This document shows, in pieces, positions 9,209 through 24,331 of a stretch of DNA of 25,862 nucleotides. This stretch comes from a virus (taxonomy: Duplodnaviria > Heunggongvirae > Uroviricota > Caudoviricetes), in the IMG/VR virus record IMGVR_UViG_2908572912_000005, positions 1 through 25,862 of that record; one strand, given 5' to 3'. Each line of letters begins with the position of its first letter. The first letter of the stretch is position 1. The notes beneath the pieces were generated by a model. The model saw only the letters and a list, made by a program, of their open reading frames with translations. It was not told the DNA's origin and did no database searches. The position numbers were made by a program, and so were the translations under genes.

Positions 9209-9495
9209 AAATAACCTTCCTTTCTCCAGATTTCTTGTGTGCGAAAAACACCTTCTGCATGCATCAGGCGTAATTCTTCTTTGGTGTAATCGCTGGTTTT
9301 TACCCGCCCGTCGATTAAATCGTGGCATGAGCTACAGGCAATCGCTGCCTGCATATCGTGTGGTTTTGTCGCTGTTCCGCACGTCCCCGCCAGCCTGTAA
9401 TGCGCCAGCACAGAGGTTTCGGGATTGTGATTGCAGTAGCCAGGGATTCTGATCTGGCACATCTGGCCTTTAGCCGCTTTACGTAAATTCACCAT
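9205..9495 (-). CDS. YbcO-like (DUF1364) putative nuclease with Cys-rich metal-binding motifs
   Basis: 96 aa; ...CQIRIPGYCNHNPETSVLAHYRLAGTCGTATKPHD...IACSSCHD... resembles E. coli prophage YbcO as I recall it. Confidence 0.7.
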   Translation of the reverse strand: MVNLRKAAKGQMCQIRIPGYCNHNPETSVLAHYRLAGTCGTATKPHDMQAAIACSSCHDLIDGRVKTSDYTKEELRLMHAEGVFRTQEIWRKEGYL

Positions 9496-10093
9496 TACGC
9501 AAACTCCAGTAGTTGTGCGGCCACATTTTCAACTTCCTCCTGAGAGGAGAATTTACGGAACAGAATCCAGTTCCACAGCACATTCAGAACAGATTTATAA
9601 ACCTGCTGAAACTCGGTTTCGTCCATATTCGCAAACGCGATGGATTTCGCCCTGCGCCCACGGCTACCGTCCGGATAAATATGCTCGGTGTAAAATCCGG
9701 CCTGAATGGTTACCCACTCGCGGAAAGCCTCAAACGACTTTAGCAATGCCGTATCCCGAGTTCTGCGTGTCGCAACTGTATTTAGATATTGCTCTGCGGC
9801 ATCACTCAGGGCTGGTGTGTGTTCCCGACCAACTGATTCGCACAAGTAATCCACGAAACCAGACAGCAGTTCTCGTTCGCGAGGTGTGATCGCCCCACCG
9901 ACCGGAGTCCAGTAATCGAATCCCAGTTGCAGGAGTTTGAAAAACGCTTGTGGAATGCGTAGTTACGCACACGCTTAAAGTCTGCGTGTATCCACTCACC
10001 TATTTTGATTTGATGCAGAAAATCGCAACTCTCCGGCGTCGCCGGGAGAAGTAAACCAGAAGAGGTTTGTTTGACCAGTTGTATATGCGCCAT
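9495..10093 (-). pseudogene. Nin-region phage gene split into two overlapping reading frames by a frameshift at an A5/T5 homopolymer
   Basis: The frame from the ATG at 10093 (MAHIQLVKQTSS...HKRF) stops at 9806; a second frame is open from ~9962 to 9495 (...FFKLLQLGFDYWTPVGG...LLEFA). Both read through the AAAAA run at 9939-9943; one nt of indel there would give a single ~200-aa protein. Confidence 0.5.
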
Positions 10094-10368
10094 TTCTCAA
10101 TCTCTCGATGGCGCAGTGCAGCAGATGCCAGTTGTTCAGGCTGACGTATAAAGTATAAATAAACTGGTTCCAGTGTAAAGCCCCCACATTGATGGAATAA
10201 AAATCAAACAATAGATTGCTGGGATAAAAATACAACGCTTATTATTAAAAGCGGTTAGACAAATTAAATTTTAATGTTATGCAAATCTGCCAGATTAGCA
10301 TAATATCTCATTTGAAAACCGCTGAAATAACAATCTTATCAGGATTAATCATATTAAGGTGAGTAAAT

Positions 10369-10455
10369 ATGGAAAACAACAAATCTGCACATTACGCTCC
10401 TTTTTTATCTATAATACTTTTTGTATTTTGTTGTGTATGGGCGGTATTTTTATAA
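10369..10455 (+). CDS. Candidate small hydrophobic peptide (28 aa)
   Basis: ATG at 10369 preceded by AAGGTGAG Shine-Dalgarno; product MENNKSAHYAPFLSIILFVFCCVWAVFL has one predicted TM segment; ends 15 nt before a strong terminator hairpin. Confidence 0.35.
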   Translation: MENNKSAHYAPFLSIILFVFCCVWAVFL

Positions 10456-10470
10456 AACACACCCACAAAT

Positions 10471-10500
10471 AAATCAAACCCGCTACAGCGGGTTTGATTT
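10471..10500. terminator. Bidirectional intrinsic terminator (13-bp perfect stem, 4-nt loop)
   Basis: AAATCAAACCCGC-TACA-GCGGGTTTGATTT; GC-rich stem core with U-rich distal arm on either strand; lies between the convergent S8 peptidase gene and the small peptide ORF. Confidence 0.6.
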
Positions 10501-10509
10501 ATATAGTTG

Positions 10510-12774
10510 TTATACGGAAACTGGCACACGAGCAGGCAATGGATAGTGAGCCCAGTTATTAGCATTTAAAGCTCTTACGCCATCAGCATAAACTTGTGTG
10601 TTTCCATCTAATGATTTTAAAGTTACTACAATAGTTACAGGTAAAGGCTCCATTAAGGCCGGTTCATTCGCTCTCAACGTTGTTTTAGCCTGAAGAGCCC
10701 AGTTACCCGAAGTAATTCCTTTATTAAATGCCTTGCGATGAATTTTTACTGGTGACCACTTTCCACCATGCTCAATTTGAGCTCTCTCATATCCAGATTG
10801 ACCGTTTTCTCCTTCCATAGGCACTTTTCCTTTTATAGTATTATTCTCAATTAAGCCAAAACTTAGCTCTACGTTCGCGCGAACATATTCACTGCCGGCA
10901 TTAGGGTTCAGTGGTGGTGCATATGCAGCAGTAATTACAATCTCACCTTTAAATTTTCCATTTTGAATAAGTGCCGATGGTATGGGATAGTTTTCCTTTC
11001 TCCACCTCATCCCAGGAACCAAGAATGTTTGGAAAATCAGAGTAAACCTATCATCACTATCATATAAGGTCTCAATAACTTCATTAGGAATTCCCGCTCC
11101 CAAATAGCGTCTTTCACTTGGCGAGTAATCAGGAGAAGATAATTGAGCGGAATGAATTAATAATGCTTTAATCAATGATGGTGAAACATTAAAGTCTGAA
11201 TTAGTGGCTATTCTCTGCCATGTATGCGCAGCTAAACTTGCCACAATTGGAGCAGCAAAACTAGTACCAAAATTAGAGCAAAGCCTATTATCTGGCCCTA
11301 CGACCTTTAAACTGCTTGCTCCTACATTCCAAGGTCTATGAACCCCACCGCCAGCATGGATTATATCTGGCTTTGGAGTAAATACAGGCCCAGGGCCACG
11401 ACGAGTATATGGTGTCGGTGTTCCAATTTCACTTAAAGCATCATTAGCTTCCATATGAGAAACTGAACCAACTGTTAGTGCTCGGACTGACTCTCCAGGA
11501 GAGGAAATTAAATCAGCACCTCCAAGCGGTTCAGGATTTGGCCATGTACGTATAGGTTCATCTACATAATTACCTGCAGCAACTACAAACAAAATACCAA
11601 ATTTATCGCTGAGCCGATCTAACTCCATCGCAAAATCACTAAACGTCTGCTCATTGCATGGTCCGCCTCCCAAAGACAAATTCCAGACTTTTATATCTGG
11701 TCTTTTATTTACAGCATCTGCTAGCCTCAGAATTAAATCTGATATATAAGATCCATTTTCATCTAAGGCACAAACATCATGGATTTTAGATTTTGTATCA
11801 GGAATCCATGGATGATTGTCATTTAAAAAATGAGCGCCTGATATCAATGAAGACACCATAGTCCCATGTTCATAACTCGTATCAGGAGGAATTACGTATG
11901 TTTCCCTACTCACTACCCAAGGAGTAATTGTTGCCGCGATGGGGCTTACCCCAGTGTCAAATACAGCAACAATGGGTAATTCTTCTGATGGTACGGGAAA
12001 GCTATTTGTTTCAATGCCAACAGAATCACTTACACTAACCGGGAATGCTGAATATTTTGGTTCTGGAATTAACGTTCTTATACCCGGGTAATCAATGAGA
12101 ATGTCTAATATATATCTATCATTTGGGGATAAATCCATTATCCTTAATAAGGGAAGACCACATTTTTGTCTAATCTCATCATATTTAACTCCGTGTTGTT
12201 CTAATATAGAAATAACGTTTTCATAGTTGTTGTAAGTTGCATCTTCACCTGTGTACTCAAATAGTCGTACAAGGATGTTTGATGATTCAAACAAACCATC
12301 AGTGCCTCCTGGAACCTTCCTATTCTCATCCCAAGGTTCAATGCGCTCAATCGCGCTTAGATTAGCCAAAATCGCTTTAATATTCCGATGTAAAATGACT
12401 GACTCTAATACGTCAAAACAGCCGGCATGAGCAGCAACCAACATTTCATCTATTTTGGCATGACCGGCATTTTGCAATCCAGCCTCTTGAGCAATTTTGT
12501 TCGGCCTATGCGTTTTGGCTATTCCCTGGTCTCTTAATTTGAAAACCAAAGTACCCAAGCTTCCAGGGTACTCTGAAAGTTTGGATTCTAAATAATGTTT
12601 ACTGGTTGTTAAATTTCTTACTAGCCCTTGTCTATATTCGGCTGTTACATCAACCAATACCTTTGCCCCACCGCCAGCGTTTACTATTGCACCCAAGTCA
12701 CTACTGGAAAAAGGGATTCTTAACATTGGGTTTGTAACTTTTGCGTTACTAAACTGTGTACCCCTTCTGCTCAT
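10510..12774 (-). CDS. Subtilisin-like serine peptidase (S8 family) with large N- and C-terminal extensions
   Basis: 754 aa; catalytic triad motifs in canonical D-H-S order: VAVFDTGV (Asp), YEHGTMVSS (His), GTSFAAPIVA (Ser), plus AAGN oxyanion-region motif. No obvious signal peptide. Start overlaps the upstream ATPase gene by 26 nt. Confidence 0.9.
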   Translation of the reverse strand: MSRRGTQFSNAKVTNPMLRIPFSSSDLGAIVNAGGGAKVLVDVTAEYRQGLVRNLTTSKHYLESKLSEYPGSLGTLVFKLRDQGIAKTHRPNKIAQEAGLQNAGHAKIDEMLVAAHAGCFDVLESVILHRNIKAILANLSAIERIEPWDENRKVPGGTDGLFESSNILVRLFEYTGEDATYNNYENVISILEQHGVKYDEIRQKCGLPLLRIMDLSPNDRYILDILIDYPGIRTLIPEPKYSAFPVSVSDSVGIETNSFPVPSEELPIVAVFDTGVSPIAATITPWVVSRETYVIPPDTSYEHGTMVSSLISGAHFLNDNHPWIPDTKSKIHDVCALDENGSYISDLILRLADAVNKRPDIKVWNLSLGGGPCNEQTFSDFAMELDRLSDKFGILFVVAAGNYVDEPIRTWPNPEPLGGADLISSPGESVRALTVGSVSHMEANDALSEIGTPTPYTRRGPGPVFTPKPDIIHAGGGVHRPWNVGASSLKVVGPDNRLCSNFGTSFAAPIVASLAAHTWQRIATNSDFNVSPSLIKALLIHSAQLSSPDYSPSERRYLGAGIPNEVIETLYDSDDRFTLIFQTFLVPGMRWRKENYPIPSALIQNGKFKGEIVITAAYAPPLNPNAGSEYVRANVELSFGLIENNTIKGKVPMEGENGQSGYERAQIEHGGKWSPVKIHRKAFNKGITSGNWALQAKTTLRANEPALMEPLPVTIVVTLKSLDGNTQVYADGVRALNANNWAHYPLPARVPVSV

Positions 12775-13903
12775 ATGCTCCTGACTCCTTCAGAATGTTT
12801 GAAATTACTCTTGATGTAAGTTTGTACAAATTAGCAAGAACTCTGATAGAAAATAATTTTTTATCTTTAGAACGTAACCAACGAATTTCATCTTCGTAAG
12901 TGCTTAAATTTACACCTTCCATAAGCGATTGAGCAAGATACAAACGCCTATACAATTTATGGTGATTTATCACACTTGCACCTTCAATAACTGCATCCCT
13001 ACGTGCATCCAAGCTCACCTGTTCAATTATTGCTCCGGATAATCCTTCCGATTTTCTTGATAAATCACTTAAATCTAGATCGCTACATATCATATTCTTT
13101 AAACGATTTTTCCAAATTAACTCTCTCTGATGTATGTCAGGCAGAGGCATTGGAATTCTGAAGCTAAATCGCCTCCAGATTGCAGGATCCAGAAGTTGCT
13201 CATGGTTAGTTGAGGCAATAATTACCGTATCCTCTGATGCCGCATCCATATTCTGCAATAGTGAAATGACAACTCGCTGAAGCTCACCTATATCTCTCTC
13301 ATTACCTCTTGCTCCAGCTAAAGCATCAAATTCGTCTAAAAAAAGCACTGATGGCCTCTGCATTACATAATCGAAAACCTGTCTAAGATTTTTGCTGGTT
13401 TGTCCCAATAAACTACTAATCAAAGTATCGCAACGCACTGTAAGAAGTGGAAAATCTAAGCGGGTAGCGATGTACTTAGATAACATAGTCTTACCTGTTC
13501 CTGGCTTTCCATACACGAGCATACGACTCGGCAATGCTGCATCAGCTTTAACAAACTCATCATAACGTTGAACATTAGTGATAAACTCTTCAACACGGGT
13601 ACTGATTGCTGCAGGCAGAAAAATCTCTGAACTGTCTAATTTAGGATAACTGACATCAACAGTGTTGAGTCGACTATCAATATCTACCGGTAATGAGCCC
13701 AGAGATATCCCACCTCCAGCCCTTTGAGCTCCTGCCAACGCCTGGGGAGCTCTAAGCAACCTTTCTCTTATCATTCTGGCTTGCTTGACCTCCCCTTTTT
13801 GTTCGAGCTTATCTGCCAGCAACCCAGCATAATTACTAGCCATCGAAGCATTTGCCTTTGTTGCACCTTCAATGATTTTTAACACTTCTGATAAATAATC
13901 CAT
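12749..13903 (-). CDS. AAA+ family ATPase
   Basis: 384 aa; Walker A GKPGTGKT, Walker B VLFLDEFDAL, sensor-1 region IIASTNHEQLLDPAIWRRF; ~130-aa N-terminal extension; GGGAG ribosome-binding site. Confidence 0.9.
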   Translation of the reverse strand: MDYLSEVLKIIEGATKANASMASNYAGLLADKLEQKGEVKQARMIRERLLRAPQALAGAQRAGGGISLGSLPVDIDSRLNTVDVSYPKLDSSEIFLPAAISTRVEEFITNVQRYDEFVKADAALPSRMLVYGKPGTGKTMLSKYIATRLDFPLLTVRCDTLISSLLGQTSKNLRQVFDYVMQRPSVLFLDEFDALAGARGNERDIGELQRVVISLLQNMDAASEDTVIIASTNHEQLLDPAIWRRFSFRIPMPLPDIHQRELIWKNRLKNMICSDLDLSDLSRKSEGLSGAIIEQVSLDARRDAVIEGASVINHHKLYRRLYLAQSLMEGVNLSTYEDEIRWLRSKDKKLFSIRVLANLYKLTSRVISNILKESGAYEQKGYTV

Positions 13904-14096
13904 TCAACACTCCCACAACAAAAAGCCACAGCAATCAAAAAATGAGCACGCAGAATCAAAATGCTCTCTAATCGTAACGCATTTTGAGATTTTTGATACG
14001 TTTTTTTGGGATTATGTAACGCCAAATGGTCATTTTGTGTCAGAAAAATAAATCTTAGTACCGAGAATATGTAGCTTCCATCCTTCATCGTTCTAT

Positions 14097-14528
14097 TCAT
14101 CCCTGATCTCCAAGCCTCTCTCGAAAACCATTCTGATAAAACGCCAGCACACGCTGCATAACTTCGCTCTTCCGGCACTCGCGACAGATTATGTTTAGGC
14201 GACTGTCGTAGCGACGTATTTCTCCGTCAGGTAATGACCAGATAAGGTCCGGATCAACCACAACCGGTTTCTTCAGCTTTGCCCTAGATAGTTTTTTGCG
14301 GGCATTTTGCCAGTCCTTACGAGCCTGTTCAGACGGGAATAACCCGTAACCAGAGTTGTATACATCGCCACTGGCAACCAGCTCTCTGGCGAGAACGCTC
14401 ATCAGATATCTTGTCGCACCTGTCTTGGCTTCCAGTTGCCGTAACGTCTCGCGCCCACTCCGGCGTACTAGTTCAACAACCTGCCCTTTAATTTTTTCCC
14501 GCTCTTCTTGTGTAAATACTTTTGCCAT
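14097..14528 (-). CDS. Hypothetical protein (143 aa), basic, possible DNA-binding fold
   Basis: ATG at 14528 with GGAGG Shine-Dalgarno at 5-nt spacing (the ORF track start at 14543 is a TTG); no motif I can assign confidently. Confidence 0.55.
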   Translation of the reverse strand: MAKVFTQEEREKIKGQVVELVRRSGRETLRQLEAKTGATRYLMSVLARELVASGDVYNSGYGLFPSEQARKDWQNARKKLSRAKLKKPVVVDPDLIWSLPDGEIRRYDSRLNIICRECRKSEVMQRVLAFYQNGFRERLGDQG

Positions 14529-23934: not shown

Positions 23935-24129
23935 ATGAGATATGACAATGTTAAACCATGTCCATTTTGTGGTTGTCCATCAGTAACGGTGAAAGCCATT
24001 TCAGGATATTACCGAGCGAAGTGTAACGGATGCGAATCCCGAACCGGTTATGGTGGAAGTGAAAAAGAAGCACTCGAAAGATGGAATAAACGAACCACTG
24101 GAAATAATAATGGAGGTGTTCATGTATAA
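23935..24129 (+). CDS. ralR: Restriction alleviation protein / endodeoxyribonuclease toxin RalR (Lar)
   Basis: 64 aa MRYDNVKPCPFCGCPSVTVKAISGYYRAKCNGCESRTGYGG... Confidence 0.85.
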   Translation: MRYDNVKPCPFCGCPSVTVKAISGYYRAKCNGCESRTGYGGSEKEALERWNKRTTGNNNGGVHV

Positions 24130-24331
24130 AATTACCGCCACTATTGAAAAGGAAGGTGGCACTCCTACTAACTGGACAAGATATTCAAAATCTAAACTAA
24201 CGAAATCAGAATGCGAAAAAATGCTCTCAGGTAAAAAAGAAGCAGGCGTTTCCAGAGAGCAGAAAGTAAAACTGATAAATTTTAATTGCGAGAAACTTCA
24301 GTCCTCGAGAATTGCATTGTATTCAAATTAA
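24122..24331 (+). CDS. ydaC: YdaC-like protein (69 aa)
   Basis: ATG at 24122 (MYKITATIEKEGGTPTNWTRYSK...); overlaps the ralR 3' end. Confidence 0.7.
   Translation: MYKITATIEKEGGTPTNWTRYSKSKLTKSECEKMLSGKKEAGVSREQKVKLINFNCEKLQSSRIALYSN

Follow-up and report, generated by a model that had tools for sequence, protein, structure and literature searches.

Among described systems, those closest to the locus considered here are the IetAS modules, which were first described as plasmid-stabilising toxin-antitoxin (TA) pairs. These take their name from ietA and ietS of pTiC58, a stability and incompatibility determinant of that plasmid, in which the serine protease is given as the toxin and the AAA ATPase as the antitoxin (Yamamoto 2009 as summarised in PMC13069673). 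Likewise, the S026/S025 homologs of SGI1 constitute a functional TA pair that promotes maintenance of the island (PMC5006074). Anti-phage activity of IetAS homologs has also been reported (Gao 2020 as cited in PMC13069673), and protease activity was found to be critical for defence, matching earlier studies, with an ietA mutant not being clonable alongside ietS (PMC13069673). For the ietAS system of B. cereus, abortive infection is suspected, and YosG (SPbeta yosG), when expressed, is toxic to cells with the system but not to those without it (bioRxiv 10.1101/2022.08.27.505566). Moreover, ietAS cloned from E. coli ECOR52 acted in synergy with Zorya II against T3, and ietAS is often prophage-borne (bioRxiv 10.1101/2022.08.21.504612). 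Here, we consider two genes in a 25,862-nucleotide stretch of tailed-phage DNA (IMG/VR record IMGVR_UViG_2908572912_000005, positions 1 to 25,862; the window below), which are virtually certain to be an IetAS pair. Whereas the pTiC58 and SGI1 relatives are located on a plasmid and a genomic island and were characterised as stability modules, the window pair is found on a prophage. In what follows, the pair itself, its family, catalytic residues, location, mobility, and domains come from our analysis of the window, whereas the toxin and antidote roles, the need for protease activity, abortive infection, and the trigger are carried over from homologs.

To place the pair in a family, we compared both proteins with the profile models of PADLOC and NCBIfam. 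IetA matched PADLOC model PDLC02196 (E 8.9e-143) over residues 1-374 of the 374-position model, and IetS matched PDLC02197 (E 1.2e-301) end to end over residues 12-753, the next non-Iet PADLOC families being more than 100 orders of magnitude weaker. Both NCBIfam equivalog cut-offs were also passed, by a small margin for IetA against NF042959 (‘Anti-phage ATPase IteA’; 526.6 bits versus a cut-off of 510, positions 1-367 of 367), and for IetS against NF042956 (‘S8 family anti-phage peptidase IteS’, IteS_antiphage; 1045.9 bits versus 900). In addition, the AAA+ ATPase gene lies immediately upstream of the S8 peptidase gene in the same orientation, as is the IetAS layout. In fact, RefSeq labels the identical locus in E. 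coli AR_0369 as iteA and iteS. Set beside IetAS itself (Gao et al. 2020), the window pair has the same gene order, sizes, full-length profile matches, and intact catalytic residues, and we noticed no structural difference. A sequence-only reading of the window had already pointed to the IetAS class and proposed a profile search for membership, and both proteins now pass at full length. It had also presented the pair as an undescribed or poorly characterised module; the first of these descriptions falls away, and the second holds for mechanism only. The locus is already known, being a named system that is validated in homologs and labelled automatically by standard pipelines (PADLOC, PGAP/NCBIfam). 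Recognition of the system from sequence was thus a sanity check rather than a discovery, and our own additions are small, namely where the cassette begins and ends, evidence that the cargo of its slot varies, and a predicted pro-subtilase-like architecture for IetS.

The two names in circulation deserve a remark. NCBIfam and RefSeq use IteA/IteS, whereas the literature and PADLOC use IetA/IetS, and a full-text search for IteA together with IteS returned no papers under the NCBI spelling. Because the spellings differ, look-ups by name from RefSeq annotation miss the literature.

Several other assignments were considered and rejected. A compartmentalised AAA+ protease of the ClpXP, Lon, FtsH, or HslUV kind is at odds with the sole peptidase domain being S8 and not S14, S16, M41, or T1, and the NCBIfam FtsH and PAN models score IetA far under their cut-offs (e.g., 101 versus 600 bits). 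A CBASS module of the Trip13/HORMA type was likewise discarded, the TRIP13 model giving 2.4e-16 on the ATPase as against 8.9e-143 for the IetA model. Moreover, Trip13/Pch2-type CBASS regulators have HORMA and CD-NTase partners, for which RefSeq annotates no gene across the whole window, whereas the window ATPase is partnered with a protease. As for the ietHAS variant (Liu-DS4; NAR 2026, PMC13069673), this likewise has IetA and IetS at its core, depends on protease activity, and has IetA behaving as the antitoxin, but needs an extra SNF2-family helicase gene. No such helicase is found in the cassette (10457-14134), which is flanked by the DUF977 and DUF1367 genes.

With regard to the plasmid founders, the pTiC58 pair was judged by proxy through a pair on the Ri-plasmid pRiO132, which shows the ATPase-then-S8 layout and matches the PADLOC IetA and IetS models. 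The pRiO132 ATPase is 39% identical to window IetA over residues 4-307, while the peptidase is 28% identical to window IetS over the S8 and C-terminal domains (260-736), and the N-terminal ~260 residues of this Agrobacterium plasmid-type IetS are not alignable to those of the window protein. A tblastn search against plasmids returned few close relatives, among them full-length matches from Acidovorax (52%) and Dongshaea (33%), and the S8 genes of Agrobacterium/Rhizobium Ri/Ti-type plasmids aligned at ~27% identity over residues 260-736 only. The window pair falls in the ‘IteA/IteS equivalog’ clade, a subfamily found widely among Proteobacteria and distinct from the plasmid founders.

According to the open reading frame (ORF) list of the window, the pair consists of two minus-strand ORFs, each with an ATG start (Table 1), that share 26 nucleotides, as the sequence-only reading had noted. 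An alternative ietS start at Met17 is used in one phage record. However, the longer start and the overlap are taken to be real because Asn15 and Pro16, which lie upstream of Met17, are invariant over 34 homologs (50-84% identity), an AAGGAG/AGGAG Shine-Dalgarno sequence stands just 5' of the ATG at 12774, and a Klebsiella homolog (75% identity) has an overlap of the same 26-nucleotide length. In a P. aeruginosa homolog (56% identity), ietA and ietS overlap by 44 nucleotides. The overlap implies that the two genes are co-transcribed and, with a Shine-Dalgarno sequence inside the ietA 3' end, translation of ietS is probably coupled to that of ietA. Co-transcription had been claimed from the overlap alone, and the internal Shine-Dalgarno sequence and a hairpin after ietS now lend it further support.

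Table 1. Coordinates of the ietA/ietS pair, its predicted protein domains, and the surrounding cassette in the window.
Feature	Position	Strand	Description
ietA	12749-13903	-	384-aa classic-clade AAA+ ATPase; putative antitoxin/regulator component
ietS	10510-12774	-	754-aa S8 (subtilisin-family) serine peptidase, predicted cytoplasmic; putative toxin/effector component
ietA/ietS overlap	12749-12774	-	26 nt; ietS Shine-Dalgarno just upstream, inside the ietA 3' end
IetA N-terminal helical region	13718-13903	-	aa 1-62; three predicted helices (4-17, 19-35, 39-62), pLDDT 50-81
IetA AAA+ core plus lid	12974-13612	-	aa 98-310; Pfam AAA and AAA_lid_3, invariant columns
IetA pore-loop-1	13403-13411	-	L165-L166-G167 within SSLLGQTS; invariant or nearly so across the family
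IetA C-terminal helical extension	12788-12964	-	aa 314-372; AF2 helices 314-329, 336-346, 353-359, 364-372, pLDDT ~90
IetS N-terminal domain	12295-12774	-	aa 1 to ~160; family-specific alpha/beta, no assignable fold family; AF2 pLDDT mostly 85-97
IetS basic loop R81-P91	12502-12534	-	invariant R81 and A86-K87-x-H89-R90-P91, within the N-domain
IetS I9-like prodomain unit	12049-12282	-	~aa 165-242; beta-alpha-beta-beta-alpha-beta (167-237), putative assignment
IetS S8 catalytic domain	11140-11973	-	aa 268-545; Pfam Peptidase_S8 and invariant residues
IetS C-terminal beta-sandwich (jelly-roll)	10525-11049	-	aa 576-750; all-beta, predicted, of the type found C-terminal to KP-43 and Tk-SP
Conserved leader	13904-14007	-	~100 nt upstream of ietA, including a GGGAG Shine-Dalgarno; presumed promoter location
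Palindromic hairpin	10469-10502	.	probable intrinsic terminator closing the cassette; begins 7 nt past the ietS stop codon
IetAS cargo cassette	10457-14134	-	3.7 kb: terminator, ietS, ietA, leader; between the DUF977 gene and the nin-type DUF1367 gene

In IetA, we identified a Walker A motif (GKPGTGKT, residues 132-139, with Lys138), a Walker B pair (Asp190 and Glu191), a sensor-1 Asn233, and the arginine fingers Arg244 and Arg245. As family alignments revealed, the catalytic residues of both IetA and IetS are all invariant across homologs of 50-85% identity, which bears out the complete Walker A/B and sensor-1 motifs previously read in the ATPase. Pfam places an AAA domain at residues 128-253 (2.6e-30) and a weak AAA_lid_3 at 275-315, and FtsH and the proteasomal ATPases are among the top matches to the predicted fold, for which the AlphaFold2 (AF2) model has a mean predicted local distance difference test (pLDDT) score of 79.5 and a predicted template modelling (pTM) score of 0.67. 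Here, the ATPase fold begins near residue 98, giving an N-terminal extension of ~100 residues rather than the ~130 estimated earlier. The helical region at the very N-terminus has no Pfam match even at E<=10 and its model is of low to moderate confidence, yet it is strongly conserved, with many invariant columns (e.g., Tyr25, Leu28-Ala30, Lys32, Leu33, and Arg46), and is a candidate partner- or substrate-binding domain. No Pfam match was found for the C-terminal extension (residues 314-372) either. By hydropathy, IetA lacks a signal peptide or transmembrane segment (maximum 19-residue Kyte-Doolittle score of 1.07). Its pore-loop-1 (LLG) is non-aromatic, unlike that of substrate-threading classic AAA+ ATPases.

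As for IetS, the catalytic residues Asp273, His303, and Ser505, and the oxyanion-hole Asn402, are all invariant in the 34 homologs, and the Asp/His/Ser triad is intact as had been claimed. The one Pfam domain found is Peptidase_S8 (5e-26, residues 268-544). The first 40 residues show no hydrophobic h-region, and the maximum 19-residue Kyte-Doolittle score of 1.48 gives, by this hydropathy check, neither a signal peptide nor a transmembrane segment. Judged from its sequence, IetS is predicted to be cytoplasmic, in agreement with the earlier reading. Its AF2 model (pLDDT 81.3, pTM 0.86) adds three predicted regions around the catalytic core, each without a Pfam match, these being the N-terminal domain, the prodomain-like unit, and the C-terminal domain. 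Within the N-terminal domain, the Arg81-Pro91 loop is modelled at lower confidence than its surroundings and may serve for contact with IetA or for processing. A linker at residues 243-267, again of lower model confidence, leads into the active-site domain. The extension that follows this domain measures ~210 residues, where ~250 had been given. As modelled, IetS would look like an unprocessed pro-subtilase, with an N-domain, an I9-like prodomain in the canonical position, an S8 core, and a jelly-roll similar to that of KP-43 and Tk-SP. Indeed, Tk-SP (Thermococcus kodakarensis, 3afg) and KP-43 (1wmd) are both subtilases with a C-terminal beta-jelly-roll. However, these two are secreted and autoprocessing, whereas IetS is only 17-20% identical to them, lacks a signal peptide, has an extra N-domain of ~160 residues, and is partnered with an AAA+ ATPase. 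A sequence search of the Protein Data Bank (PDB) with IetS returned only generic subtilases (E ~1e-5) and no IetS structure, and a literature search combining ietAS with cryo-EM found no mechanistic or structural paper. The predicted layout of IetS (N-domain, I9-like prodomain, S8 core, and beta-sandwich) offers concrete mutants to test.

Turning to the genomic setting, the whole window (1-25862) is 100% identical to the E. coli AR_0369 chromosome (NZ_CP027140, 4547652-4573513), where it begins right behind sitD and runs to the end of intR in a prophage located between sitD and ttcA. From the intR end, the gene order is intR, xisR, ralR, recET, kilR, sieB, the repressor genes, ydaT, and the replication genes, followed by DUF1627, DUF977, iteA, iteS, a frameshifted DUF1367, DUF1364, and DUF1133 (Q-like), and then by the lysis genes, trkG, a ParB-like gene, and tail-fibre remnants. 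The window is thus a defective Rac-type prophage remnant, devoid of head and tail genes.

Such a position inside a prophage and next to replication genes might favour a core phage function for the pair, either as a protease and chaperone for morphogenesis or maturation or as an accessory to replication, or else a secreted virulence subtilase, and the generic annotation in phage record ON470595 (‘S8 family peptidase’ and ‘cell division protein FtsH’) would sit well with this. Nevertheless, the distribution of the cassette points elsewhere. Of 5,426 complete E. coli genomes, 78 (1.4%) contain it, at >=99.5% identity in each, as one chromosomal copy adjoining DUF977, whereas 956 have the DUF977-DUF1627 backbone at >=80% coverage. 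In Rac-type prophages without IetAS, the same slot is filled by unrelated genes, which are an ATP-binding protein, a STAS-like protein, a hypothetical protein, and hokD in EcPNK006, QueH and DUF1971 in ST70, and ordinary small nin-region genes in 2009C_3996. The base composition of the block also sets it apart, with a GC content of 0.39 versus 0.47-0.50 in the flanks and a third-codon-position GC (GC3) of 0.27-0.32 versus 0.45-0.60, in keeping with the AT-rich block noticed beforehand. Outside E. coli, a Klebsiella lambdoid prophage has the 75%-identical pair in an equivalent slot between replication and DUF968/lysis genes, while the P. aeruginosa pair resides in a chromosomal locus without an obvious prophage, and other homologs are found on plasmids. 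A prohead-type morphogenesis protease was rejected on these grounds, the pair lying between replication and nin genes and being absent from most Rac-type prophages, which carry unrelated cargo instead. A secreted or exported subtilase (mycosin, SubA, autotransporters) was rejected as well, there being no h-region and the mycosin model scoring 27 bits against a cut-off of 279. Moreover, the anti-phage IetA and IetS models are by far the best family matches. Because presence of the pair is variable and a signal peptide is lacking, a core phage or secreted function is effectively refuted, and we consider it extremely improbable. The sequence-only reading had named a morphogenesis or signal-peptide-bearing secreted family, or conservation in all Rac-like prophages, as findings that would count against it, and we found none of these.

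Since carriers number 78 against 956 with the backbone, the slot is variable, and the cassette is bounded, the pair is mobile, accessory cargo rather than part of the phage core, which agrees with the accessory prophage cargo first proposed. Rac-type prophages thus show a hotspot of changing cargo at the DUF977/DUF1367 junction (window 10094-14134), which might, though we consider it unlikely, be a hotspot for defence cargo in particular. With respect to the cassette boundaries, homology to IetAS-less Rac-type prophages ends at window position 10456 (locus L004) or 10093 (locus L003, EcPNK006) and resumes at 14117-14135, the right boundary falling inside the last codons of the DUF977 gene. An AT-rich stretch at 10094-10456 is common to the window and ST70 and lies outside the IetAS cassette. 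In the Klebsiella prophage, nucleotide homology (~70%) to the cassette starts at window position 14007, about 100 nucleotides upstream of ietA. At the other end, the hairpin that follows ietS is a perfect 16-nucleotide palindrome (10469-10484/10487-10502) with a 15-base-pair stem and a 4-nucleotide loop, and the 76-nucleotide stretch around it, when folded in the ietS direction, has a minimum free energy of -27.6 kcal/mol (z -5.4). A T-tail was scored on the plus strand only in a consensus scan, the tail in the ietS direction being UUUGAUUUAUUUGUG. The strong hairpin after ietS is therefore as formerly noted, although with a stem of 15 rather than 13 base pairs, and its action as a bidirectional terminator is plausible. 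An analogous terminator, AAACCCGC-loop-GCGGGTTTTTTT, is found in the Klebsiella cassette, and both the E. coli and Klebsiella cassettes close with a AAACCCGC-loop-GCGGGTTT hairpin. In view of the leader homology and end hairpin shared by these two cassettes, we conclude that a short leader and a terminator travel with both genes. An Rfam scan of the whole window returned no match within or near the cassette.

Taking all of this into account, the best overall explanation is very probably that the window carries a canonical IetAS cargo of a defective Rac-type prophage, in which a toxic protease and an ATPase antidote provide abortive infection. That the toxin-antidote and abortive-infection logic applies to this particular allele is, by analogy with homologs, a fairly probable but less secure part of it. 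By this mechanism, IetA and IetS are expressed from a single transcript. IetS, as a cytoplasmic subtilisin-family protease, would be toxic when free, and IetA, as a classic-clade AAA+ protein remodeller, would hold it harmless in uninfected cells through ATP-dependent activity. During infection, a phage protein would engage or inhibit IetA, or would act directly on the IetA-IetS complex, such that IetS is released, and the homolog literature suggests that a single phage protein may suffice as the trigger. Once released, IetS would cleave cellular and/or phage proteins, growth would stop, and the phage would not be propagated. As a side effect, the pair might also tie cells to its carrier element, in the manner of an addiction module. 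We infer that the family-specific N-terminal domains mediate the action of IetA on IetS. With the AF2 model in mind, we tentatively envisage that the I9-like prodomain keeps IetS zymogen-like, though the odds are rather against it. Taken a step further, and distinctly unlikely in our estimation, the IetA ring might grip the prodomain and N-domain of IetS, with phage proteins drawing IetA away, whereupon the prodomain would be lost and the protease unleashed. If true, activation by prodomain loss would be a logic not yet described for any bacterial immune effector.

Some of the same structural features could be turned the other way, with IetA as a positive activator that, on a phage cue, unfolds or extracts the IetS prodomain or feeds substrates to the protease, much as in a two-component AAA+ protease. 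Here, IetA does have the fold of substrate-threading unfoldases that partner with proteases (FtsH and the proteasomal ATPases), the modelled IetS does resemble an unprocessed pro-subtilase, and tight translational coupling suggests a stoichiometric complex. However, homolog IetS is toxic without IetA, and a catalytic ietA mutant resisted cloning together with ietS (PMC13069673; PMC5006074), neither of which is expected of an activator. Moreover, S8 peptidases do not form chambers, no way for an AAA+ ring to dock on them is known, and the pore-loop-1 of IetA, as noted, is non-aromatic. On balance, we regard activation by IetA as improbable.

The pair might instead be mainly an addiction module that stabilises the Rac remnant by post-segregational killing, with defence incidental or absent for the window allele. 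Consistent with this, the homologs of pTiC58 and SGI1 serve plasmid stability and island maintenance, respectively (PMC13069673; PMC5006074), and in the window the cassette is intact even though the prophage is defective, lacking head and tail genes and having its DUF1367 gene frameshifted. Yet an addiction role is compatible with defence, and the two are not exclusive. Furthermore, experiments have shown homologs to act against phage (Gao 2020 as cited in PMC13069673, and as indicated in the Stokar-Avihail preprint), and the cassette is also present in ON470595 (vB_EcoS-683R6), an apparently complete Rac-like phage of 55.7 kb with terminase genes, at the same place and with the same early region. 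A variable cargo slot likewise fits defence cargo. An addiction role as the main one is thus rather unlikely, albeit less so than activation by IetA.

Returning to the toxin-antidote explanation with abortive infection, a number of points weigh against it. ECOR52 ietAS alone gave ‘limited anti-phage activity’ (bioRxiv 10.1101/2022.08.21.504612), a result that also speaks for the addiction role. The mechanism of IetAS is moreover described as unknown in papers up to 2026 (PMC13069673; PMC11267873). Because its pore-loop-1 is non-aromatic, processive threading by IetA is not certain. In addition, a promoter scan of the 195-nucleotide ietA leader, inclusive of 13904-14007, gave no match to the sigma-70 consensus, nor was one assignable by eye, and as a consequence expression from the repressed prophage is an assumption. 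Lastly, TA behaviour is extrapolated across subfamilies, given that the plasmid-type IetS is so divergent (28% identity) and its N-domain is not alignable. For work on the mechanism of the IetAS family, the Rac-borne E. coli allele offers a convenient, genetically tractable representative.

Among the 78 carriers, three E. coli strains (28Eco12, NR3736, and B19695) have the peptidase annotated only as ‘S8 family peptidase’ plus ‘hypothetical protein’ next to an intact iteA, which suggests that ietS is disrupted in these. Loss of ietS before ietA would be the expected order of decay were IetS the toxic partner. ECOR52, the source of the tested clone, was not found among the 60 of the 78 carrier genomes that were listed. 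In the P. aeruginosa locus, a 115-residue ORF with no Pfam match (L010:3559-3906) overlaps the ietA start and has no counterpart in the E. coli cassette.

Elsewhere in the window, the DUF1367 gene directly downstream of the cassette (9495-10093, minus strand) is split into two ORFs (9495-9854 and 9806-10093) and is a frameshifted pseudogene in RefSeq; frameshifted into two ORFs as it is, this gene fits a decaying prophage. We also found the RalA small RNA at full length at 24128-24306 (minus strand; Rfam RF02694, 225 bits), this being the antitoxin of the RalR type I TA toxin. RalA/RalR is thereby a second module of the TA or defence type in the window prophage, and sieB, kilR, and recET are present there too.

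In the corresponding slot of EcPNK006 (L003:2715-4672), three co-oriented genes are followed by hokD, and encode a 376-residue ATP-binding protein (weak GHKL HATPase_c_2), a 104-residue DUF4325/STAS-like protein, and a 172-residue protein without a Pfam match. None of the three matches any PADLOC model, and the set may be an unrecognised defence cassette. The cargo slot of Rac-type prophages could be mined for further, possibly unannotated, defence genes.

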